Position numbers and translations under genes: made by a program. DNA of 64,000 nt from Thaumasiovibrio occultus (GTDB lineage Bacteria > Pseudomonadota > Gammaproteobacteria > Enterobacterales > Vibrionaceae), in contig AP023053.1 of assembly GCA_019703815.1 (NCBI GenBank), forward strand, positions 46,995 to 110,994, written 5' to 3'. Positions 31,260 through 42,756 of this stretch are shown in pieces. Under the pieces are notes generated by a model that searched no databases, was not told where the DNA came from, and saw only the letters and a list, made by a program, of their open reading frames with translations. Each line of letters opens with the position of its first letter. The first letter of the stretch is position 1.

Positions 31260-31421
31260 ACCATATATGTGCAACACGCCAACAACGTGAGTTGCCAATG
31301 GATGAACAGCGCCCCTGATTTAGGGGAAGTGGCAAGCATACGCTCCCTGCTTCCTACACCTTAGACGGCCCTGCTCACTACGCAATTTTACTTTGTTGGT
31401 TATCAACACGAGGAAGTGACG

Positions 31422-32579
31422 ATGAAAAAATATCAAAAAAATATCACGGTAACGGAAGGCCAACGCGCGTTGCTATTTAAAAACGAACAATTTCAAACAG
31501 TGTTGCCAGTCGGGCAGCACAAATTTTGGGACTTTTCCGATAAGGTGCGGTTTAAGCTGATCAGCCTCAATACGGTTTTTGTGACCGATGCAGATGTGAT
31601 CCGCTTATACCGCGAAGGGGCACTGCAAGACGACATCTTGCACTGGAAACTGTCGCCAACCGAAACCGGTTTGCTCTATTTCAACGATGTGTTGCTGGGG
31701 ATTGTCGCGCCGAACGAGCACGTTTATGTCTGGCAAGCGGCGGGGGAATATCGCTTAGAAAAAGTCGACTTAGAGAGTGATGTTGAAGTAAAAGGCGCAA
31801 TGCTGCGCGATATTGAACGCTCGAATAAGAACACCGCGAGCAAGTTGATCCACAGTGCCAGCACTCATGCGATCCAACCGGTGAAATCTATCCGTGTGGA
31901 TAAACAACAAGTAGCGTTGCTGTTCTTTAACGGTCGTTATCAAACCGCATTGCAACCGGGCAATTACGGTTACTGGCAGTTTATGCACGATATTGATGTC
32001 CGCCAATACGATTTGCGTACTCGGACGTTTGAGGTCACCGGCCAAGAGATCTTAAGCAAAGATCGGGTGAGCCTGCGGATCAACCTGAGCGCTAACATTC
32101 GCATTAGCGATCCCATGTTGGCTGCGACCACGGTGGAGAGTGTGGATGATTTCATCTACCAGCGTTTGCAGCTGGCTTTGCGTGAAGCGGTCGGCACCAA
32201 AACCTTGGATGATATCTTGCAAGACAAGCTCTACATCAACCACACCGTGCGCGAGTTGGTAGCGGAGCAGTTGGCACGTGTTGGCGTGGTGCTAGAAAGT
32301 GTCGGGGTGAAAGACATCATCTTGCCGGGCGAAATGAAAGCGATTTTGAATCAGGTGGTGGAAGCGCAGAAAGCCGCAGAAGCGAACGTGATCAAGCGCC
32401 GTGAAGAAACCGCTGCCACCCGCAGCTTGCACAATACCGCCAAAGTGATGGAGAACAACCCGACGCTAATGCGCTTGAAAGAGTTGGAAGCGCTAGAGAA
32501 GGTGTCGGAGAAGATCAGCAACTTGACGGTGTATGGCGGCTTGGAAGGCTTGATGCAAGGTGTGGTAAAGCTGACTTAA
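31422..32579 (+). CDS. cytosolic SPFH/band-7 (stomatin/slipin-like) domain protein
   Basis: C-terminal two thirds match SPFH core and coiled-coil (ILPGEMKAILNQVVEAQKAAEANVIKRREETAA). No TM segment. N-terminal beta-rich domain of about 150 aa. GAGGAAG SD. Confidence 0.75.
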   Translation: MKKYQKNITVTEGQRALLFKNEQFQTVLPVGQHKFWDFSDKVRFKLISLNTVFVTDADVIRLYREGALQDDILHWKLSPTETGLLYFNDVLLGIVAPNEHVYVWQAAGEYRLEKVDLESDVEVKGAMLRDIERSNKNTASKLIHSASTHAIQPVKSIRVDKQQVALLFFNGRYQTALQPGNYGYWQFMHDIDVRQYDLRTRTFEVTGQEILSKDRVSLRINLSANIRISDPMLAATTVESVDDFIYQRLQLALREAVGTKTLDDILQDKLYINHTVRELVAEQLARVGVVLESVGVKDIILPGEMKAILNQVVEAQKAAEANVIKRREETAATRSLHNTAKVMENNPTLMRLKELEALEKVSEKISNLTVYGGLEGLMQGVVKLT

Positions 32580-32733
32580 TCGGTCTAAAAACCTAGCGGT
32601 AATAAACCTAGCGGTAAGAAACGCAGAGCAAATAAACCGAAAGCAAATCAACTTGAAGCAAGAGAGCCGCCTGGTAGGTTTAGGCGAGGCGGCTCAGCTA
32701 TCCAAAATAGAATCAAAAATGAAGGAGCATAGT

Positions 32734-33960
32734 ATGTGTCAGAAATTTAATCTTTATGAATCAGAAGGCAAGGCCGCCATCAAAGCATGGACCCAAGGGG
32801 TGCCTTTTGAAGACGAGGCGCGTGCCCAGCTTGATAACATTGCCGCGATGCCAATTATTCACTCCCATATTGCGGTGATGCCGGATGTGCATTTAGGCAA
32901 AGGGGCGACGATTGGTAGCGTTATTCCATCGGTGGATGCGGTGATCCCCGCTGCTGTCGGGGTCGATATTGGTTGCGGTATGGTAGCGGCGAAAACCAGC
33001 CTGCGCGCGAAAGATCTGCCGGATAACTTGCGCGGTGTGCGCTCGGCGTTTGAAGCGGCGGTGCCGCACGGACGAACGGTGTCGCGCCACCACAAGCGTG
33101 ATAAAGGCGCGTGGGGAAATATTCCCGCGTTAGTGGCGCAGGAGTGGCTAACACTGCAAGCGCGTTTTGAACGCATTTGTGAAAAACACCCAACGATCAA
33201 AAAGTCCAACAACGTCAACCATTTGGGTACCATGGGAACCGGCAACCATTTTCTTGAGCTGTGTATTGATGAGAACGATGCAGTGTGGATCATGCTTCAT
33301 TCCGGTAGCCGCGGCGTGGGGAATTTGATTGGCACCTACTTTATAGAGCTGGCCAAAAAAGAGATGGAGCGTCATCAAATTCAGTTACCGGATGTGAATT
33401 TGGCCTACCTAAAAGAAGGTAGCGAGTATTTTGATGACTACGTTGAAGCGGTGGAGTGGGCGCAAGATTTTGCCCGTAAAAACCGCGAGATCATGATGCT
33501 TAATGCGATTGCCGCGCTGCGTACTGCGCTTGGGGTGAATTTCAGTGCCAGCGAAATGGCGGTGAACTGCCACCATAACTACATTTCCCGCGAGCATCAC
33601 TTTGGTAAGGACTGTTATGTCACCCGTAAAGGGGCGGTGCGCGCGCAGCAGGGTGAGATGGGGATCATTCCAAGCAACATGGGAGAGCGTTCGTTTATCG
33701 TGCGTGGCTTGGGAAATCCTGACAGCTTTAACAGTTGCAGCCACGGTGCGGGGCGTGTGATGTCGCGAACCAAAGCCAAAAAGGTCTACACCATCAAAGA
33801 TCAAGAAGCGATGACCCAAGGGGTCGAGTGCCGCAAAGACAAAGAGGTGATTGATGAGATCCCTGCGGCATACAAAAACATCGACGATGTGATGGCGGCG
33901 CAAAGCGATTTAGTGGAAGTGGTGCATACCCTAAAACAAGTGGTGTGTGTGAAAGGCTAA
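32734..33960 (+). CDS. rtcB: RNA-splicing ligase RtcB
   Basis: AAGGAG SD before ATG 32734. Near-identical blocks to RtcB (HIAVMPDVHLGKG, GTGNHFLE, HSGSRG, CHHNY, SHGAGR). Confidence 0.9.
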   Translation: MCQKFNLYESEGKAAIKAWTQGVPFEDEARAQLDNIAAMPIIHSHIAVMPDVHLGKGATIGSVIPSVDAVIPAAVGVDIGCGMVAAKTSLRAKDLPDNLRGVRSAFEAAVPHGRTVSRHHKRDKGAWGNIPALVAQEWLTLQARFERICEKHPTIKKSNNVNHLGTMGTGNHFLELCIDENDAVWIMLHSGSRGVGNLIGTYFIELAKKEMERHQIQLPDVNLAYLKEGSEYFDDYVEAVEWAQDFARKNREIMMLNAIAALRTALGVNFSASEMAVNCHHNYISREHHFGKDCYVTRKGAVRAQQGEMGIIPSNMGERSFIVRGLGNPDSFNSCSHGAGRVMSRTKAKKVYTIKDQEAMTQGVECRKDKEVIDEIPAAYKNIDDVMAAQSDLVEVVHTLKQVVCVKG

Positions 33961-34034
33961 AACAAAACAGCCAGACGCAAAAAAACAGTTACCAAAAGCC
34001 AGATATAAAAAAACAGCGAATAGGAAAGCAACGG

Positions 34035-35093
34035 ATGCGATATATCCAAATCGACGGCAGCATGGGCGAAGGCGGCGGGCAGGTACTGCGTACGTCGTTA
34101 ACGTTATCGATGCTGTATCAAATGCCGATTGAAATTAGCAATATCCGCGCAGGACGCAATAAGCCGGGCCTGCTGCGCCAGCACTTAACGTGCGTGTTGG
34201 CGGCGGCAGAGATTTCATCTGCGCAGGTGGAAGGCGCCGAGCTTGGCGCTACTCGGTTAAGGTTTGCGCCGGGCAGCGTCAAAGCGGGGGAGTATCACTT
34301 TGCGGTGGGCTCGGCAGGCAGCACCGCATTGGTATGCCAAACGGTTTTACTGCCATTAGCGCTTACCGGGCAAGGTTCGCGCGTAATCTTCGAAGGTGGC
34401 ACCCACAATATGGCAGCCCCTTCGTTAACCTTTTTAACACAGAGCTTTCTGCCGCTACTGGCACAGCAAGGGTTGAACACTAAGGTCACGCTTGATCGGG
34501 TGGGGTTTTACCCAGCGGGTGGCGGGCGTTGGCAGTTAGATATCGATGGTGTCGCATCACTCGCGCCGCTGCGTGTTGCGCCTGAGAAAGAAACCGAAAA
34601 TTCTACGCTGACGGCTGTTGCGATGATCAGCAAGTTGGCAAACAAGATAGGTGAGCGGGAAATTACTCAGCTAGAGAAATCCCTGCGCCGCTCCCCGCTT
34701 GGTGATGTGAACGTTAGCGGACGGGTTGAGTCCGTTGAGTCTATCGGGCCGGGTAACATGTTATTGCTGACAGCAAAGAGCTACCACCATGCGCATGTCT
34801 TTGAAATGGCGGGAAGTTACGGCGTAAAAGCGGAAGCAGTTGCCAAGCGAGTTGCGGGGCGTTATTGCGAGTTTTATGAAGCAGAGGCAGAGGTTGAACA
34901 TTACTTGGCCGATCAACTATTGCTGCCTTTGCTGGTGGGCGGCGCTGGCGCGTTTATCACTTCTGTGCCGAGTGGCCATTTGCAAACCAATGTGGCGCTC
35001 ATTCGCCAACTGACCGGAAAACCGCTGACACTAACACCACATGGTGAAAGCCGCTTCGGCGCACCACGCTGGCAGGTGGCGCTCAGTCGTTAG
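34035..35093 (+). CDS. rtcA: RNA 3'-terminal phosphate cyclase RtcA
   Basis: IDGSMGEGGGQVLRTSLTLS and IRAGRNKPGLLRQHL blocks. Catalytic His region. AGGAAA SD. Confidence 0.85.
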   Translation: MRYIQIDGSMGEGGGQVLRTSLTLSMLYQMPIEISNIRAGRNKPGLLRQHLTCVLAAAEISSAQVEGAELGATRLRFAPGSVKAGEYHFAVGSAGSTALVCQTVLLPLALTGQGSRVIFEGGTHNMAAPSLTFLTQSFLPLLAQQGLNTKVTLDRVGFYPAGGGRWQLDIDGVASLAPLRVAPEKETENSTLTAVAMISKLANKIGEREITQLEKSLRRSPLGDVNVSGRVESVESIGPGNMLLLTAKSYHHAHVFEMAGSYGVKAEAVAKRVAGRYCEFYEAEAEVEHYLADQLLLPLLVGGAGAFITSVPSGHLQTNVALIRQLTGKPLTLTPHGESRFGAPRWQVALSR

Positions 35094-35164: not shown

Positions 35165-35213
35165 CTGTTGTCTGTTGTCTGTTGTCTGTTGTCTGTTGTC
35201 TGTTGTCTGTTGC
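35165..35213. repeat. heptanucleotide tandem repeat (CTGTTGT)x6 plus one imperfect copy
   Basis: Seen directly. Located 70 nt downstream of the rtcA stop. Confidence 0.95.
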
Positions 35214-35385: not shown

Positions 35386-35991
35386 ATGAAACAAAAAAGC
35401 ATTTTGATCGAATGTGCGGTCATCGTGGCGTTTTTTTGGGGATTGAGTAAGCTGTTACCGGTTGGCCTGTGGTTTGGCGGGATCGTGCTAATGTCTTTAG
35501 TGTTTAGCTGGTGGAGTTGCGGCGCGGTAGGCTTTTTAGCGTGGCGTCGCGAGTTCTCCCCGCTCAAAACCTACCTTTTCCTCGCTGTCGATATGGCGAT
35601 CAGCTCAGTGTTACTGTTGATCGCACTACCACTGTTCAAACTGGCATTGGGCGATCTTGGCTTGTCTGGCAGTTTTTTCCATGTGGCGATCTGCTTGAGC
35701 TGTTTTTGGTTTGGCCACAAAGCGCTACCTTTTACCTTATCTAACCTTGATAAGCTACCCGCCGAAACTCACGCTCGTCTGCATAAGGCTTCAAGTCTCG
35801 TCGGACGTTTGCTTACCTTTTGCATCGTCGCGGCACTGGTGGCGGCAATGGCATTTCTGACTTATCAGCAAGACGGGGTAGTGGCGCGTTATTTGGCGGG
35901 GCTTGTTTGCGTTGCGCTGTTTAGCATTGGTTACTTTTTCCTGCACTATTTTTCCGTTTACCGAGAAGCGATGGGCTATTCGCAGTCATAA
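35386..35991 (+). CDS. hypothetical polytopic inner-membrane protein
   Basis: 201 aa, 5-6 hydrophobic helices. Confidence 0.55.
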   Translation: MKQKSILIECAVIVAFFWGLSKLLPVGLWFGGIVLMSLVFSWWSCGAVGFLAWRREFSPLKTYLFLAVDMAISSVLLLIALPLFKLALGDLGLSGSFFHVAICLSCFWFGHKALPFTLSNLDKLPAETHARLHKASSLVGRLLTFCIVAALVAAMAFLTYQQDGVVARYLAGLVCVALFSIGYFFLHYFSVYREAMGYSQS

Positions 35992-36336
35992 GTGAATTTA
36001 GGGAGGGCATCGACGTTTGCGAGATGCCCAACCAACCCCTCACACCAAAGTGAGACAAGTTTGTTTCGCATCATCAATTATTCCTCGCGGTACTGACAAG
36101 TTCTCCGTACCGAAATACCTTGAGGTTACTCGGTGATATTCCTCTGTCATTCCACTTACCCCACCTTTTTATTTGCCCATCGCTGCAATTAAGCCGTTAT
36201 CTTTCTGAGTGAATAATTCCCTTTTTAGAATATTCATGAAGTCCATTAGCACCATAGGGACTATAAACAATCTTCGTTGTGCGCTATTTCTCGTTAAACG
36301 AATGCGTCGTTTATTTCGTGGTACGGTTTCTATATA

Positions 36337-36726
36337 TTGGCGTTAATCGAACAAGGCCAAGGAGATAAGGTGTCGATTGAACAAATAGAGGTAATTGACG
36401 CCATCGGCATTGATAATTCAACAGGTCATGTTGTGCTATCGATCATTGATTCACTGCCGTGGGATAACGCGCACTTATTGCGATTGCAAGATAAGCTCAA
36501 TACCTATCTTGGCTTTATTGAAAGCGGAGAATTAGAAGTGGCTTATCCCGCCACGAAAGGACGCCAAGTGCAAATACATCTGCATAGTCGATATTGCCCA
36601 GATGAAGACGCCATTAGTTTTCTAGAGCAGATCACTAGGTTAATCAGCAGCGCGGGAGTTGTGTTTACTCATGATGCCGTGTCTGAAACCGGAAAACTGC
36701 CAACTAGTACTGTTGCTACACGTTAG
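36337..36726 (+). CDS. hypothetical protein (AT-rich islet)
   Basis: 129 aa ORF with AAGGAG SD. Low GC relative to flanks. Confidence 0.45.
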   Translation: MALIEQGQGDKVSIEQIEVIDAIGIDNSTGHVVLSIIDSLPWDNAHLLRLQDKLNTYLGFIESGELEVAYPATKGRQVQIHLHSRYCPDEDAISFLEQITRLISSAGVVFTHDAVSETGKLPTSTVATR

Positions 36727-36736
36727 GGGGGCTTTG

Positions 36737-37249
36737 ATGTATCTAGAAGTGCACTCAGCGAGGGACGTTGCATTAGATTCACTGAAATTTAGGTTGTTTA
36801 TTTCTTCATTTGTCGGTTTTACATTGTTCGTGTTCACTTACTATAAATACGCTGTGGGATTAACTGAAGGCGAATTATTCCATATGCGAATTCTTTGGAC
36901 TGTCTGTTCGTTGAGTTTTTTGATTTATATGTTTAACGCTTTTAAATTTCTAACGTCGGCTATAAAGGAAGGCGGCGATTGGATATTTGAAGTTAGTAAC
37001 GGTGTTGTGAAAATTGATGTCCCTTTGCCTGGTCATAATGAAAACCTGAGAATTCCCGTGGAGAATATTTCATGCATGCGTAAGGTTGTGATTGAAATTG
37101 ATAGCACGGATCATAAGTATTGGTATATTGGTTGTGTCGATGGCAAGGACATTGATATTAATTATCAGCAGGTTCCATTCGACTATCGTGCTATTTCTGA
37201 GTATTTACTAGCTAATTATGGTGTTGAGTGTCAAACCGAGAATCGATAG
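36737..37249 (+). CDS. hypothetical membrane-anchored protein (AT-rich islet)
   Basis: Start 11 nt after previous stop. Two N-terminal TM helices then a soluble domain. Confidence 0.45.
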   Translation: MYLEVHSARDVALDSLKFRLFISSFVGFTLFVFTYYKYAVGLTEGELFHMRILWTVCSLSFLIYMFNAFKFLTSAIKEGGDWIFEVSNGVVKIDVPLPGHNENLRIPVENISCMRKVVIEIDSTDHKYWYIGCVDGKDIDINYQQVPFDYRAISEYLLANYGVECQTENR

Positions 37250-37412
37250 TTTTCTGCGCGCTCTACTTCTTGCTATGTTATTTCATTATGTTTATTGAGG
37301 CACTCCAATATTTATTCATGAATGTACTAAAGAAAAGCAGGCTGTGGTGTGACGATTGCCTCTTAAATCAAAAAAGCGTTGGCAGAAAACGCAGTGCTTC
37401 AAGGACGCAATT

Positions 37413-37955
37413 ATGATCCTCGCAATTGATGTGCAATATACAGAGACCGCCGCGTATGTCGCAGGCGTGTTATTTGAATGCTGGGATGCAGACTCGCCGA
37501 TAGGGGAGTTTGTCACCCGCGTAGAAGAGGTTGCACCGTATCAACCGGGGCAATTTTACAAACGCGAATTGCCGTGCATTTTGGCGTTATTAAACGAGCA
37601 TAGTTTGGCACCAATCACCTTTGTGATTGATGGCTACGTCTATTTAGATGGCGCTAGCAAAGCCGGCCTTGGTAAGCATCTATTCGATGCGCTGCAACAA
37701 AAAGCCGCTAAAGCCAATGGTGGTGTTAGTGACCAAGGTAGACCGGTTGAGGTGATTGGTGTGGCAAAAAAAGCGTTCGTTGATATTTCAACCGACTGTG
37801 AGTTATTTCGAGGTACCAGCCAGAAACCTCTGTACGTCACCACCACCGGTGATGTCAGCACGGCCAAATCGGCAATTGCCCTAATGGCTGGTAAACATCG
37901 CATCCCCACGTTATTGAAACGCGCCGATCAATTATGCCGTGAAGCGGCTAAGTAG
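37413..37955 (+). CDS. endonuclease V-family protein (short form)
   Basis: AIDVQY (catalytic Asp), PYQPGQFYKRELP (PY.PG..FRE block), FVIDGYVY (DG), IGVAKK block. All EndoV catalytic positions present. 181 aa. Confidence 0.65.
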   Translation: MILAIDVQYTETAAYVAGVLFECWDADSPIGEFVTRVEEVAPYQPGQFYKRELPCILALLNEHSLAPITFVIDGYVYLDGASKAGLGKHLFDALQQKAAKANGGVSDQGRPVEVIGVAKKAFVDISTDCELFRGTSQKPLYVTTTGDVSTAKSAIALMAGKHRIPTLLKRADQLCREAAK

Positions 37956-38025
37956 TTATCGCATGAGTTCTTTGCAATATTGAGCTCGCTATATGCGGAG
38001 TGCTGCAGTTATTTAAGGAGAGGGA

Positions 38026-38277
38026 ATGAATCAAAAATCGATTGGAACGCCAGTACCAAGAAGTGCTAAAGCTGATTATGAAGATAGGGAAATATTACTG
38101 TTGGCAAAATGTTCTGCTGAGTTACGAGCGACATATCAAATAAAGATGTTGGCTTACTTAGCAAAAACGAGGGGGAAGAAACTCGTTCTTGCATTGACAC
38201 AAGAAACGAAACTTCATAGTTCGTTGTCGTCATTGATAAGCAGTTTTCCAGAGTTAATTGAAATAGAAAGGACCTGA
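38026..38277 (+). CDS. hypothetical small protein
   Basis: 83 aa. GGAGAGGGAATG SD. AT-rich. Confidence 0.4.
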   Translation: MNQKSIGTPVPRSAKADYEDREILLLAKCSAELRATYQIKMLAYLAKTRGKKLVLALTQETKLHSSLSSLISSFPELIEIERT

Positions 38278-38278
38278 G

Positions 38279-38692
38279 ATGAGTGTATATTTATGTATTT
38301 TTGATGGCGACGAAGAGCTCGATGGCATTGATGTTGGACAATATGCCGATTTTGCGTTTTTCCGTGAAGGCGTGGCAGCTGTGGTTGAAAACGGGGTAGT
38401 CGGCTCTGTTTGTCCAACGCTCATGCTGCATTCGGATTGTGATGGTGAATGGACGCCCGCAGAATGTGTGAGACTGATTGAAGAGCTTAATACAATCGAA
38501 AAAGCGTTTCTGTTGTTGCCTCCTGTTGAATACAACTCTGATTGGAAGGCGTCAGTCGCTGAGTCTTGCGGCATCGAACCTGAGTCTTTTTACGATTGTT
38601 TTTTTGATATTGATGGCGAGCCGTTAATTGAACGTATTCGTGATTTGGCGAAGATGAGTGTAGAAACTCTGCAGCCTATCCTGTTCCAGTAA
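38279..38692 (+). CDS. hypothetical acidic protein (immunity-protein-like)
   Basis: 137 aa. Start 1 nt after previous stop. Acidic, Cys-containing. Confidence 0.45.
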   Translation: MSVYLCIFDGDEELDGIDVGQYADFAFFREGVAAVVENGVVGSVCPTLMLHSDCDGEWTPAECVRLIEELNTIEKAFLLLPPVEYNSDWKASVAESCGIEPESFYDCFFDIDGEPLIERIRDLAKMSVETLQPILFQ

Positions 38693-39141
38693 TTGGCACT
38701 GGGGTGGGTCCGAAACTGGAAAACTGGGAGTTACCTAACCGTATTACACTGAATCAGTGTGATGCACCTACCGAGGTAACTCCTGCCTTGCAGTAAAATT
38801 CGTGTGTTTGTCTTCCTGCTTTGTGCTGGGTTCTCTCCTTACAACGTCGGGCCTATTTTCCTTTCCCGCAATCTCGCAGAAATTTGCCTTCTTCTTGCTG
38901 TATTGATAAATATTTTGCGAAACAGATCTAAATGCCGTTTTTGAGCTTCGTCTGTTGGTGAACAAGCTCATTACTCTAATGCCCTAGTAAATTAGCGAAT
39001 TCTCAATAGTTCTAATTGTGATCTGGTTCTGCCTGCTTATCTTAGTGACAGTGTCACTTGGTGGGTGGTTTTACACGATGAGAATCGCCACATCTTCCGA
39101 GTCGGGGATGGAAAAATATAACAATAAAGGAGTCATTGGCT

Positions 39142-39714
39142 ATGAAATATCAATCGTTGTTGGCTTTAGCGATACTAGGTGGGGTGGCACAGGCGCAAGA
39201 TCTGATCTTAACGCCGACCAGTTTGGGCGAGCTCACCTTGTCTTCATCGACCCAAGTCTCGCAAACTGGGCTTACCGAGCTATTTCCAGACTATCAAATC
39301 ACCCATGAAATAGGACAAGGCGACTCGCCAGATTTTCATCTGCTGAAGGTCAGTGATGGCGACGAGATGTTGTTCTATATCCTTTCCTACATCGAAGACG
39401 ACGTCACCCATCAGAGCGAAAGCTATGATATTGATTTATTGGTGGTGACCAGTGACAACATTGCCGATGGTTACGGCGTTCGGGTCGGCGATCGGGCAGA
39501 AAAATTGTTTCAGAGCCTGCCGGGCAATATCGATGTGTACGCTAACCACTATGATAATGCGCTCGGCCATGAAGGCTTGTTTTATCAGTTCTATATCGAG
39601 CCGAACGACGAAGGTAACGACGGCGCAAACCCGTTAGATGTCGATATTGAAACTATCTTAGAACATAATCCAGAGATCTCAGAGTTGTCGTGGCCGACGC
39701 CGCGTTGGGGTTAG
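39142..39714 (+). CDS. secreted hypothetical protein
   Basis: AAAGGAG SD. MKYQSLLALAILGGVAQAQ signal peptide. Acidic. Confidence 0.55.
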   Translation: MKYQSLLALAILGGVAQAQDLILTPTSLGELTLSSSTQVSQTGLTELFPDYQITHEIGQGDSPDFHLLKVSDGDEMLFYILSYIEDDVTHQSESYDIDLLVVTSDNIADGYGVRVGDRAEKLFQSLPGNIDVYANHYDNALGHEGLFYQFYIEPNDEGNDGANPLDVDIETILEHNPEISELSWPTPRWG

Positions 39715-39753
39715 TCGTTACAGCGACGTCGCCCGTTTTTAGCAGGAGGTAGT

Positions 39754-40740
39754 ATGTATCTGCAGTTTTTAGGGACGTCTGCGGGTGTGCCGACCAAGCA
39801 GCGCAATGTGTCAGCACTTGCGCTGCAAGAGAGTAAAGGCAGTGACTGGTATTTAATTGATTGTGGCGAAGGCACGCAGCACCAGTTGCTGCACACCAGT
39901 TTGTCGATCAATACCTTAAAAGCGATCTTCATTACCCATGTGCATGGCGATCACTGCTATGGCTTGCTCGGTTTGCTGGCGAGCGCGGCCATGAACGGTC
40001 GTAAAGCCCCGTTGCAAGTAATCGCTCCTTCCGGCATTGCTGAGTGGTTTGCCGCGACGCAGCGCTATACCGCCTTGTATATCCCATACCCGTTGGAGTT
40101 TGTGTTGGCTGACGATCTGCCCACGCTTACGTTCGGCAATACCCAAGTGTCAATAACGCCGCTGTCGCATCGCGTGCCTTCTTACGCGTATAGCTTTTGT
40201 GAACAGCAGGTTGAGTCGCCATTAGATATCGCCAAACTGCAACGTGATGGCATCGCGAAAGGCCCGCTGTGGGGGCAGATCAAGCAAGGTAAAGACGTCA
40301 CCATTGGCGATACAACCGTTGCTGCAAGTGAGTACCTACTAGCAAGTAGACTGCCGCGAAAGGTGGTGATCGCCGGTGATAACGATAGCCCGGAGTTACT
40401 GCGTACTGCTTGTCAAAACGCGCAGCTGTTAGTGCATGAAGCAACTTATACCCAAGACGTTGCTGAGAAAGTGGGCGACAGCGTGGGCCATGCTTATGCT
40501 GGGCAGGTGGGGCAATTTGCACAAGAATGTGGCTTACCGAATTTGCTGCTGACTCACTTTAGCCCGCGCTATCAAGCTCAAGCCGAGGTGTCGCCGTCAG
40601 TGTGTGATATTGGCGCGGAAGCGCAGCAGAGTTATCAAGGTCAATTGTGGTTGGCGCAAGATTTTGCGCGTTTTCAACTGAGCCCGGAAGGGGAGTTACG
40701 CTTGTTAAGCGATGGCAGCGGTGCAAAGAGTGCAAACTAA
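39754..40740 (+). CDS. rnz: ribonuclease Z/BN (MBL-fold tRNA 3'-processing endoribonuclease)
   Basis: MYLQFLGTSAGVPTKQRNVSALAL...IDCGEGTQHQLL...HVHGDHCYGLLGLL (HxHxDH). Closely tracks E. coli RNase BN over whole length. AGGAGG SD. Confidence 0.85.
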   Translation: MYLQFLGTSAGVPTKQRNVSALALQESKGSDWYLIDCGEGTQHQLLHTSLSINTLKAIFITHVHGDHCYGLLGLLASAAMNGRKAPLQVIAPSGIAEWFAATQRYTALYIPYPLEFVLADDLPTLTFGNTQVSITPLSHRVPSYAYSFCEQQVESPLDIAKLQRDGIAKGPLWGQIKQGKDVTIGDTTVAASEYLLASRLPRKVVIAGDNDSPELLRTACQNAQLLVHEATYTQDVAEKVGDSVGHAYAGQVGQFAQECGLPNLLLTHFSPRYQAQAEVSPSVCDIGAEAQQSYQGQLWLAQDFARFQLSPEGELRLLSDGSGAKSAN

Positions 40741-40809
40741 AGCAGCCTGATCAAACAAGCGGTATTGGGTGAGGTTGAACAGGGAAAGCTCTTTGCTAAG
40801 AAAGAGACA

Positions 40810-41310
40810 ATGGTGAGGAAGATGCGATGTCGAGGAAGAGGCAATGTTGAGGAAGAGACAGTGCTGACAAAAATCATCAGTGGCGGCCAATCCGGTGCCG
40901 ATATTGCGGCGCTGGATGCGGCATTGGCGTCTAGCATTGAAATTGGCGGATTTTGCCCGAAAGATCGTCAATCTGAGGTCGATCTGTCGCGTTATCCTTT
41001 GATAGAGATCGAAGGTGGTTATCGTCAACGTACCAAAGAGAACATCAAAGCAGCAGATGGCACGGTGATCTTCTATCACGCCGATGTGCAGGGCGGCACC
41101 GAGCTGACGCTGTTTCTTTGTATCAAGAGCAAATCCCCGTACAAGCTGATCGACACACAAATGGTCAGCCCAAGTGAGGCGGCGAAAGTCATTGCGCAGT
41201 TTATCGAGCAACACAATATCACCACGCTCAACGTGGCAGGGCCGAGCGCCTCGCGTGTACCGTCGATTTACGCCAGCGTGAAAGCCACGTTAATTGCCCT
41301 GTTTCAGTAA
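40810..41310 (+). CDS. SLOG-superfamily protein (putative molybdenum-carrier / YpsA-like)
   Basis: KIISGGQSGADIAALDAALASSIEIGGFCPKDR matches the GGQTGxDraALdaA...GGwcPkGR signature of the Mo-carrier-like LOG-related family. Confidence 0.55.
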   Translation: MVRKMRCRGRGNVEEETVLTKIISGGQSGADIAALDAALASSIEIGGFCPKDRQSEVDLSRYPLIEIEGGYRQRTKENIKAADGTVIFYHADVQGGTELTLFLCIKSKSPYKLIDTQMVSPSEAAKVIAQFIEQHNITTLNVAGPSASRVPSIYASVKATLIALFQ

Positions 41311-41415
41311 ACTTTAAGGTTGTGCTTAACCAAAACATAAGCAAAGCGCCAGTGTGACCAACGATTAGAGCGCCCGATTTAAAATAACAAGTGCGGCAAA
41401 AAAGGTGGGATAACC

Positions 41416-41781
41416 ATGAGTGATAAAACGCAACGATTACCGATTTGGCGCGCGCTGTCGGCGCTGTTTTTAGACACCGAAATCGATGAGGCGACGCTAA
41501 GCCATATCGCCGATACTCTTTATCGCTGCGATGTGTCGCCTGACGATGCGGAGCACATTTTGTGGCACGAAGTGTATCCGGTGTTAGCGCCCAATTTACG
41601 CGCGGTGGCTGGGGTGTGGGATGGTTGGTCAGATGAATGGCTGCTGGAGAATCTCACTGTCAGTTCGGCGAGTGCAGGTTTGCTGGCAAAGCTGACGCGG
41701 AGCAAGGCGATTGCCCAGCATTGGCAGCACATCGTTGCGGTAATGGACGCGCTTGAAAATCCATCGACGCAGCCAAAGTAA
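41416..41781 (+). CDS. hypothetical protein
   Basis: 121 aa. AAAGGTGGGA SD. Confidence 0.5.
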   Translation: MSDKTQRLPIWRALSALFLDTEIDEATLSHIADTLYRCDVSPDDAEHILWHEVYPVLAPNLRAVAGVWDGWSDEWLLENLTVSSASAGLLAKLTRSKAIAQHWQHIVAVMDALENPSTQPK

Positions 41782-41799
41782 ACCCAAGGAGAAGCAAGG

Positions 41800-42081
41800 A
41801 TGCCAACCATTCATGTGCAATCATCGCGCGCGACTGCTGATTTTACGGTGTGCGAAGTAACATCGCGGGCGTTTGCTGATCTTCTGGTGTATGTCACTGA
41901 CTCTCGTGCGGTGGTACGCGGCAACGAAGCGTTGTGGTTTTATGTTGATCACCGCGCGGTGGCCGATGTGAAAATTTGCCATGTCGACTCGCCAAGTGTG
42001 GCGGATCTGAAGATCTTTTTTGTTCACTCACGCGCGTTAGCGGGGTGGCAAAAAGCCCATCCTTTACAAGGCCACTTGTAG
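41800..42081 (+). CDS. small protein built from internal approximately 15-aa repeats
   Basis: 93 aa. Repeats of [hydrophobic]x[V/T]xSRAxAD (ATADFTVCEVTSRAFADLLVYVTDSRAVV...VDHRAVADVKICHVDSPSVADLKIFFVHSRALAG). Strong SD. Confidence 0.5.
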   Translation: MPTIHVQSSRATADFTVCEVTSRAFADLLVYVTDSRAVVRGNEALWFYVDHRAVADVKICHVDSPSVADLKIFFVHSRALAGWQKAHPLQGHL

Positions 42082-42239
42082 GGGGATTTGCAAGAAAGAG
42101 TGGCAAAATAACGTCGGCGGCGCTGGTTTTTCGCCTGTAAAAAAGCGCGTCATCAATGGGTTGAAGCGTGTCTTGGAACCTGCTTCGCCACATGTTTGAA
42201 ACGCGCTTTTTTGGTATTGATGACGCTAACGAGAGCGAC

Positions 42240-42587
42240 TTACTTTGTCGCGGCTACGAACGCCATTTCAACCAAGTAAGAGGGTTTGGCTAGCTCGGCT
42301 TTCACACACGCACGGCTTGGCGCGCTGCCTGCTGGGAACCAGTTGATCCACGCTTGGTTTAGCGCGTCCATGTTGGCAAAGTCGGTGATGTAAATGGTCA
42401 CTGACAAAATGCGTGATTTGTCGCTGTTGACGCTGGCTAGCATTTCTTCCGCTTGAGCGAAAATTTGCTCGACTTGGCCTGTCATATCGGTGCTGTCATC
42501 TTCTGGCACTTCGACAAAATGCGCCATCTTGTTGAAGACCACGACATCAGACCATTTCTCGGTAGGGTTAATACGTTGAATATCCAT
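42240..42587 (-). CDS. RidA/YjgF family protein
   Basis: 115 aa. SRILSVTIYITDF and PSRACVKAELA...VEMAFVA blocks. Confidence 0.8.
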   Translation of the reverse strand: MDIQRINPTEKWSDVVVFNKMAHFVEVPEDDSTDMTGQVEQIFAQAEEMLASVNSDKSRILSVTIYITDFANMDALNQAWINWFPAGSAPSRACVKAELAKPSYLVEMAFVAATK

Positions 42588-42675: not shown

Positions 42676-42756
42676 TGCTTTCTTCTTTCTTCTTTCTTCT
42701 TTCTTCTTTCTCGTTTTCTCGTTTTCTCGTTTTCTCGTTTTCTCGTTTTCTCGCTT
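42676..42756. repeat. compound tandem repeat (TTTCTTC)x5 followed by (TCGTTTTC)x5
   Basis: Seen directly in the divergent intergenic region between the RidA-like and xseA-like genes. Confidence 0.95.

Follow-up and report, generated by a model that had tools for sequence, protein, structure and literature searches.

A probable mosaic islet of orphan toxin-immunity genes in Thaumasiovibrio occultus, with a toxin-domain relative beside Imm70

Introduction

Arrays and islets of orphan immunity genes are well established in bacteria, as reported by Zhang et al. (2012; PMC3482391), for Vibrio cholerae (PMC5361080) and for S. Typhi, in which one islet comprises 14 genes (PMC7400221). Here we describe an AT-rich stretch of the Thaumasiovibrio occultus genome, at positions 36000-39130 of a window of 64,000 nucleotides (contig AP023053.1, positions 46,995 to 110,994; "the window" means this whole stretch, and all coordinates refer to it). 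The AT-rich stretch is probably a small islet of mosaic make-up, in which toxin-immunity genes have been retained as orphans while the matching toxin is lacking. An orphan-immunity islet is an already known kind of feature; what is new is the undescribed toxin-derived partner of Imm70 that it encodes, together with the three-gene architecture (toxin, pseudo-toxin and Imm70) in which relatives of this partner are found.

The T. occultus islet resembles the described polyimmunity loci and orphan islets in several ways. It consists of small, close-set genes on the same strand, it holds immunity-linked families unrelated to each other (Imm70 and DUF6572), its composition is atypical, and no active or cognate toxin lies nearby. 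The role proposed for it, pre-emptive protection from the toxins of non-kin, is also the same. However, the "extended" polyimmunity loci of Zhang et al. have four or more immunity genes, whereas two are recognised here. Unlike the known orphan islets, that of T. occultus is not beside a type VI secretion system (T6SS) or contact-dependent inhibition (CDI) cluster or a recombinase, and it is interrupted by an endonuclease V (EndoV) gene of host-like composition. Moreover, polyimmunity loci are said never to contain toxin genes or cassettes, whereas a gene for an 83-amino-acid (aa) protein in the T. occultus islet seems to be a degenerate derivative of a toxin domain.

The other systems close to this locus are the Rhs modules of the Tox-REase-7 type, such as CJ488_0980/0982 of Campylobacter jejuni and the CdiA-CT modules of Pseudomonas and Acinetobacter, with which the loci homologous to the small gene and Imm70 can be compared. 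In both, an RHS protein whose C-terminal PD-(D/E)xK domain shows the pattern GxxxE/IxD/ExK/Q is followed by an immunity gene. Unlike those modules, the loci described here always have the 83-aa degenerate paralogue between the toxin and Imm70, their toxin domain falls below the Pfam thresholds, and the T. occultus copy has no toxin in the window. In papers on the T6SS of C. jejuni, genes for Tox-REase-7 and Imm70 share variable regions and no such small partner is described; the searched literature contains no description of the small family or of the arrangement of toxin, small protein and Imm70 in three genes.

Results

Gene content and layout of the islet

The islet contains five open reading frames (ORFs), all on the + strand and separated by gaps of 10, 163, 70 and 1 nt, whose starts were refined from ribosome-binding sites. 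With the spacers at its edges, its features are as follows.

35992..36369, no strand: left-edge intergenic stretch, 378 nt, GC 0.426, AT-rich; no gene, repeat or RNA family detected
36370..36726, + strand: ORF1, DUF6572 protein of 118 aa (WP_192867646); GTG start behind GGAG; PF20212, 108.3 bits against a cutoff of 27, E 2.9e-31
36737..37249, + strand: ORF2, membrane ORFan of 170 aa, starting 10 nt past the DUF6572 gene; hydrophobic N-terminal region
37413..37955, + strand: ORF3, compact protein of the endonuclease V family, 180 aa (WP_086938518); assigned by PF04493, fold and active-site residues
38026..38277, + strand: ORF4, small protein of 83 aa with restriction-endonuclease (REase) fold, unannotated family; homology to the C-terminal domain of RHS toxins, obligate upstream partner of Imm70
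38279..38692, + strand: ORF5, Imm70 protein of 137 aa (WP_086938520), with 1 nt between its start codon and the end of the 83-aa gene (TGAgATG); PF15601, 52.1 bits against a cutoff of 26.7, E 6.9e-14, profile positions 6-122 of 131
38693..39141, no strand: right-edge intergenic stretch, 449 nt, GC 0.437, AT-rich; upstream of the genes for a secreted 190-aa protein and RNase Z

A sequence-only reading of this DNA had proposed five packed ORFs, two adjacent or overlapping pairs among them, an endonuclease V-family nuclease, and no integrase, transposase or attC-like repeats. All five ORFs are present on the + strand with correct coordinates, except for the choice of start codon (the mechanical TTG start of ORF1 is at 36337). 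The two pairs are real, with gaps of 10 nt in the first and 1 nt in the second, and the nuclease call agrees with a PF04493 match of 31.6 bits (cutoff 23.4). Exact look-up identified the ten proteins encoded in the region as WP_086938516-524 and WP_192867646.

The absence of mobility features was borne out by the domain and repeat searches. No integrase or transposase domain was found in any ORF between 29.9 and 47.6 kb, and no attC-like or flanking repeats, nor any repeated or imperfect-palindrome family in the spacers, were detected. The islet has no tRNA, no Rfam match at E <= 1 and no sRNA or riboswitch, no insertion sequence (IS) element or insertion scar, and no excess of promoter-like or terminator-like sites. 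An integron gene-cassette array was rejected on the lack of attC sites and of an integrase in that interval and on the two junctions of 10 nt or less, and a plasmid origin was rejected as PLSDB gave neither a DNA nor a protein match.

A small protein strictly linked to Imm70

The ORF5 product belongs to Imm70, a family predicted to confer immunity to REase-fold toxins (Zhang et al. 2012, PMC3482391), and has the same length of 137 aa and the same position as in RHS-linked loci (L083-L087). For the 83-aa protein encoded just before it, a full HMMER scan of 1.84 billion representatives returned 48 relatives, all small and aligned end to end, and a profile search widened the family to 669 proteins. 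Members occur in Myxococcus, in Pedosphaera and other Verrucomicrobia, in Hydrogenedentota, and in many metagenomes from soil, peat and fresh water; no Pfam domains are found in them. The family consensus is PRGxRPDAE..YLxK..LRATYQIRLL..GKxLVI.VP, with R12, D17, K28, T36, Y37, L42 and L67 invariant. Identity of the T. occultus protein to its nearest homologues, which are from Verrucomicrobia, Myxococcota and metagenomes of soil or peat, does not exceed about 52%.

The linkage of the small protein with Imm70 is strict. In seven looked-up places the next gene is always Imm70 (137-149 aa, and 137 aa in six of them), and the preceding gene encodes a large RHS-repeat protein in all except Myxococcus (6/7). 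We then considered a locus set made of 80 metagenome loci, the seven looked-up places (six loci) and the window. In every one of the 76 loci with at least 300 nt downstream, the small gene is followed by Imm70. Where at least 400 nt were available upstream (68 loci), the upstream ORF ends in a conserved toxin domain of about 120 aa in 51; in the other 17, which include that of Myxococcus (L086) and the window, the toxin is missing and the small gene and Imm70 are intact. The upstream proteins are of the RHS type and reach more than 1650 aa. The distance from the stop of the small gene to the start of Imm70 is between -4 and +4 nt in 79 of 80 loci, and the toxin stop lies at most 30 nt from the small-gene start in 58 of 60 loci, with an overlap of 4 nt in 26 of them; thus, the toxin gene, the small gene and Imm70 are translationally coupled. 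Genes found further downstream encode more RHS proteins, a filamentous-haemagglutinin repeat protein, Sel1 proteins, IS200 transposases and one SUKH-DUF6572 fusion. There is no sign of phage carriage of the pair, since the 2.9 million viral contigs of IMG/VR yielded no relatives of the small protein.

In T. occultus, no REase-fold toxin lies upstream of Imm70 in the window. Indeed, all frames of the 64 kb lack a detectable toxin domain or RHS fragment, and the EndoV stop codon is 70 nt from the small gene; the pair is therefore an orphan copy. The toxin/immunity reading proposed earlier from the sequence is in line with these results, as the islet encodes members of the Imm70 and DUF6572 families, the homologues of the small gene and Imm70 lie behind RHS nuclease toxins, and the window holds no toxin.

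An orphan pair could also be what remains after an RHS toxin gene was deleted in situ, leaving its downstream genes behind, and not the product of an independent acquisition. In favour of such decay, the canonical order is toxin, small protein and Imm70, and immunity genes often outlive displaced effectors, as in the V. cholerae arrays (PMC5361080). However, the EndoV gene leaves just those 70 nt in front of the small gene, no frame of the window retains a toxin C-terminal domain or RHS fragment, and no IS element or scar marks a deletion, so that we regard a decayed remnant as improbable.

Relationship of the small protein to the toxin domain

The C-terminal domain of the upstream toxins in loci L083-L168 has the consensus AGxxxEA..KNT..F.VIVG..YT.GG..GTIxDS...G.LEIKGGSS.L.SSYQLRLQTY and carries a complete PD-(D/E)xK active site (E / D / ExK / Q). 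The pattern GxxxE, IxD, ExK and Q is that listed by Zhang et al. for Tox-REase-7. Membership of the Pfam family Tox-REase-7 was nevertheless rejected, as there is no significant match and only the motif pattern agrees. With about 120 aa, this nuclease domain of the RHS proteins seems to represent a family of toxin domains that has not been catalogued.

In a profile-sequence comparison with hhalign, the small protein and the toxin domain were aligned with a probability of 88% (E 2.8e-6), D17 being paired with the toxin Asp and LRATYQIRLL with L.STYQMRLQ. The HMM of the small family matches the C-termini of 13 upstream ORFs (E 3e-6 to 4e-4), the iterated HMM of the toxin domain takes in all 87 small proteins, and weak Tox-REase-7 matches are seen in 9 of 39 members of the small family. 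The T. occultus protein itself scores 13.9 bits against Tox-REase-7 (PF15649), below the cutoff of 25, and its catalytic pattern is incomplete; its core beta-beta-beta-alpha-beta topology resembles that of solved REases, as in the PD-(D/E)xK fold. Moreover, one metagenomic protein of 166 aa (P0261) joins the last 80 or so residues of an RHS toxin's nuclease domain, in frame, to the small protein, so that in at least one organism both homologous domains stand in tandem on a single polypeptide. The small protein is a distant homologue of the toxin domain, a truncated paralogue with the REase fold.

The small protein lacks helix 1 with its catalytic Glu, and ExK is changed to LxK, with a conservation of L26 of at least 90%. 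D17, K28 and Q38 remain, and a Glu two residues past D17 is kept in about half of the family members. Because the helix-1 Glu is absent and the Glu of ExK is replaced by Leu, the small protein most likely derives from the toxin domain as a catalytically dead form, yet one under strong purifying selection. We also considered whether the 83-aa ORF is a gene fragment or a C-terminal toxin cassette that has been displaced; this was rejected, since its homologues are nearly all standalone proteins of about 83-87 aa, the longest representative having 133 aa. The exception, P0261, is a fusion to a toxin tail and is not a long toxin, and the conserved residues are invariant across phyla.

Pairs of small coupled genes bring to mind selfish addiction modules of the toxin-antitoxin (TA) type. 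In such a case the 83-aa protein, and perhaps the ORFan, would be a toxin that inhibits growth from within the cell and Imm70 (or DUF6572) its antitoxin, and the pairs would persist since their loss is harmful, not through protection from competitors. Indeed, both pairs are small, tightly coupled and AT-rich with no toxin-delivery gene nearby, the small gene and Imm70 occur without an RHS gene in the 17 loci mentioned above, and the invariance of D17, K28, T36 and Y37 would allow some residual binding or cleavage of nucleic acid. However, in 51 of the 68 loci a polymorphic toxin gene continues directly at its 3' end into the pair, and stop and start codons overlap; this is the place of an immunity gene and not of an autonomous TA module. 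In addition, the small protein is without two of the four canonical catalytic residues, no DNA-binding antitoxin domain was found with Pfam, and no TA-type model was matched in PADLOC or NCBIfam. We consider addiction modules an unlikely explanation for the two pairs.

The DUF6572 protein and the membrane ORFan

The left lobe of the islet begins with ORF1, a standalone DUF6572 protein encoded beside an ORFan. DUF6572 makes up the conserved C-terminal part of proteins that give immunity to type VII secretion system (T7SS) toxins in Streptococcus suis (PMC12558993), and in S. gallolyticus it is encoded downstream of LXG toxins. In Pedosphaera parvula (L087), a SUKH-DUF6572 fusion is encoded directly downstream of a module of the small gene and Imm70, behind an RHS gene; this neighbourhood would place both lobes of the T. 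occultus islet in one functional guild.

According to its hydropathy, the ORF2 product has an N-terminal hydrophobic region, with one or two transmembrane segments, and a soluble C-terminal part. It has no match in Pfam, NCBIfam or PADLOC, and no homologue was found among 5.8 billion proteins or, by tblastn, in plasmids; ORF2 is therefore an ORFan. Together with the DUF6572 gene it forms a candidate second immunity unit.

Base composition and origin of the islet

The GC content of positions 36000-39130 is 0.431 as compared to 0.499 across the window. Sliding windows of 3131 nt have a mean GC of 0.498 (standard deviation 0.019), with a minimum of 0.428 at start 36051, about 3.7 standard deviations low, and outside the islet every stretch of this length has a GC of at least 0.455. 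A drop in base composition from about 36000 to 39130, claimed from the letters alone, is thus confirmed as the minimum of the 64 kb. The dip is bipartite, with a GC of 0.410 at 36000-37412 and 0.428 at 37956-39141, and the EndoV gene in the middle has 0.494.

Codon usage, which had been suggested as a further check, followed the same division. Relative to the 49 other genes of the window, whose G+C content at third codon positions (GC3) is 0.552 ± 0.051, the five ORFs have in order GC3 values of 0.395, 0.368, 0.486, 0.321 and 0.413, with z-scores of -3.1, -3.6, -1.3, -4.5 and -2.7. The four paired ORFs are depressed, whereas the EndoV gene is host-like. The flanking genes at 35386-35991 and 39142-42587 also have a host-like composition; these neighbours encode a 201-aa membrane protein, the secreted 190-aa protein, RNase Z, cpYpsA, DUF7079, DUF6150 and RidA.

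The GC3 deviation of the four paired ORFs, the patchy distribution of the small gene with Imm70 and the presence of an ORFan all suggest horizontal acquisition. The low GC could instead reflect weak codon selection on genes that are short and poorly expressed, and AT-rich regulatory spacers, in a set of ordinary lineage-specific genes, inherited vertically in Thaumasiovibrio. No mobility genes, tRNA or direct repeats are seen at the edges, as would be the case for resident genes, and the EndoV gene and all the flanking small genes are host-like in composition. On the other hand, the paired ORFs are 2.7-4.5 standard deviations below the 49 genes of the same window, a depression that the nearby small genes for DUF7079, DUF6150 and cpYpsA do not share. 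The closest relatives of the small protein are, as seen above, no more than about 52% identical and in unrelated phyla, and Imm70 and DUF6572 are families of conflict systems. Vertical inheritance of resident genes seems quite unlikely to us.

A synteny scan with RNase Z over 185,579 species genomes gave best matches about 60-61% identical (Thiothrix, Halomonas/Vreelandella) with no shared neighbours, and no Vibrionaceae were among the top 80 RNase Z matches. RNase Z (39754-40740) may itself be an older acquisition despite its host-like GC.

The endonuclease V gene

The Pfam match of ORF3 to PF04493 (Endonuclease_5; E 1.6e-7) covers the N-terminal half only, and the score against the NCBIfam deoxyribonuclease V equivalog NF008629 was 25.9 bits, not reaching the cutoff of 230. 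Its clade counts over 2200 members with lengths of about 165-180 aa, most of which are from marine gammaproteobacteria (such as Hahella, Marinobacter, Shewanella, Litoribrevibacter and Pleionea), with a best identity of 62% by BLASTP, or 67% to the same protein in an alignment of 93 homologues. Its residues 4-180 align to the Streptomyces EndoV structure PDB 3GOC, and D6, E52, D73, K119 and Tyr43 of the wedge motif are invariant in the 93 homologues. The AlphaFold2 (AF2) model, with a pLDDT of 94.9, superposes on the E. coli, Thermotoga and mouse enzymes with TM scores of about 0.7 (0.72 by Foldseek to E. coli EndoV, 4XPU). From the alignment over the whole length, the invariant catalytic residues and the fold match, ORF3 encodes a compact EndoV with an intact active site, apparently an active member of the family.

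Compared with endonuclease V (Nfi; 4XPU, 2W35, 3GOC), ORF3 shares the fold, the catalytic Asp-Glu-Asp, the lysine of GVAK and the PYxP wedge motif. It differs in being about 40-45 residues shorter, without the N-terminal segment and an internal hairpin, and in the absence of the HPR motif after the third acid, as a distinct compact clade.

In bacteria the contexts of the EndoV homologues vary, with neither toxin linkage nor a conserved partner. Owing to its host-like composition and to the breadth of a family without toxin linkage, the EndoV gene is probably a bystander, not part of the toxin/immunity units, and we treat it as lying between two insertions, as an older or separate acquisition, or as a resident.

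EndoV relatives with 32-47% identity are also present in 91 stretches of IMG/VR viral contigs, mostly of 100-536 kb. In 43 of 80 viral loci (L169-L248) a Metallophos_2 gene adjoins the EndoV relative, and such a gene is also near the Hahella homologue (L080). In two loci of one phage type (L169 and L172), the EndoV relative is found among T4-type RNA ligases, RlaP and Thg1. The copy in the window lies between rtcBA and RNase Z. An RNA-repair neighbourhood of compact EndoV with rtcBA and RNase Z was considered and rejected, given that RNA ligase, RlaP or Thg1 neighbours occur in just those 2 of the 80 viral loci. A further idea, that EndoV counters deaminase toxins through immunity or repair, was dropped as well: it is unsupported in Zhang 2012 and Iyer 2011, and the bacterial contexts have no link to toxins.

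The presence of two nuclease-fold proteins in an AT-rich islet of small genes raises the question of anti-phage defence, which the sequence-only reading had offered as an alternative. The EndoV-like nuclease and the REase-fold protein would then be effectors and their small partners sensors or inhibitors, and the frequency of compact EndoV relatives in very large viral contigs hints at a conflict between phage and host. However, a search of the ten proteins against PADLOC-DB 2.0 returned no match for any islet protein at E <= 0.1, the match of RNase Z being at chance level. Furthermore, the bacterial EndoV contexts have no conserved partner, the small gene and Imm70 are linked to RHS toxins and not to defence islands, and the small protein has no relative in the 2.9 million viral contigs. 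A defence islet is thus a highly improbable explanation.

Neighbouring genes and repeats

The two genes at the borders of the islet, which encode the secreted 190-aa protein (39142-39714, with a signal peptide) and the multi-pass membrane protein of 201 aa (35386-35991), are without family assignment. Three small genes on the same strand at 40765-42081 encode cpYpsA (SLOG), DUF7079 and DUF6150, uncharacterised families of host-like GC that could be an older conflict-related set. Further to the left, rtcB and rtcA (31416-35093) overlap by 16 nt, and the gene upstream of them encodes an SPFH/Band-7 protein, not the usual regulator rtcR.

Tandem repeats were also seen in this region. A (CTGTTGT)x7 repeat at 35165-35213 is located between rtcA and the gene for the 201-aa membrane protein, and an (TTTCTCGT)x6 repeat at 42707-42754 between ridA and xseA, so that these two short repeats flank the wider small-gene region. 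Four copies of a repeat with a 17-nt period occupy 40794-40874, in the 5' part of the cpYpsA ORF.

Discussion

The data point to two immunity lobes on either side of an EndoV gene. The right lobe (38026-38692) would be an orphan copy of a coupled module, in which the 83-aa pseudo-toxin is followed by Imm70; the canonical unit would consist of an RHS toxin with an REase C-terminal domain, the pseudo-toxin and Imm70, in this order. Imm70 is predicted to bind and block the nuclease domain of a toxin injected by a competitor, and the small protein, made in a fixed ratio with Imm70, could serve as a co-immunity factor. It might pair with the toxin domain into dead heterodimers, or else stabilise or present Imm70. 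The left lobe (36370-37249) would be a second candidate immunity unit, made of the standalone DUF6572 protein and the lineage-specific membrane ORFan, and the EndoV gene between them would encode a resident or separately acquired nuclease for nucleic-acid repair, outside both units.

The most economical reading of the right lobe is that the small protein and Imm70 guard against injected nucleases of the RHS REase class. A role in co-immunity, or as a decoy, is suggested by the fixed coupling of the small protein with Imm70 and by its origin in the toxin domain. A more speculative idea, which we put forward tentatively, is that the pseudo-toxin is obligatorily co-translated with Imm70 and required for protection. 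There would then be a three-component system of toxin, decoy and immunity protein, a principle new to immunity between bacteria, whose two-gene half spreads alone as an orphan shield, T. occultus being one case.

Several points weigh against an islet of orphan immunity genes. Of the five ORFs, just two can be placed in recognised immunity families, and no evidence of any kind places the 170-aa membrane ORFan in immunity. The role of Imm70 rests on the gene-neighbourhood inference of Zhang 2012, no experiment on it having been found; moreover, that study linked Imm70 to Tox-REase-10, unlike the Tox-REase-7-pattern toxins of the homologous loci here (PMC3482391), whose C-terminal domain remains below all Pfam thresholds. 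The invariance of D17, K28 and TYQ would also allow the small protein to be a toxin in its own right, with Imm70 neutralising it. No secretion system is visible in the 64 kb, the orphan status is established for this window only, and neither mobility genes nor insertion scars were found at the islet. Finally, at 90% identity every protein of the region, the flanking ones included, is a singleton; singleton status as a sign of strain specificity was set aside as uninformative, because the host-like flanking genes are singletons too.

Orphan immunity genes help to decide which bacteria come through contact-dependent warfare alive, and catalogues of them are poor except for a few pathogens. The T. 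occultus islet adds an example of orphan immunity from the Vibrionaceae that is not attached to a secretion-system cluster. As a separate lead, the compact EndoV clade, shared by marine bacteria and large phage contigs, may be of interest for inosine and deamination repair. Wedged between RHS nuclease toxins and Imm70, there is a set of about 670 unannotated small proteins that appear to derive from the toxin domain. If the small protein acts as a co-immunity factor or decoy, the picture of one toxin and one immunity protein would be incomplete for the RHS REase class. In that case, predictors that take the first gene downstream of a toxin as its immunity gene would mis-assign the small protein.

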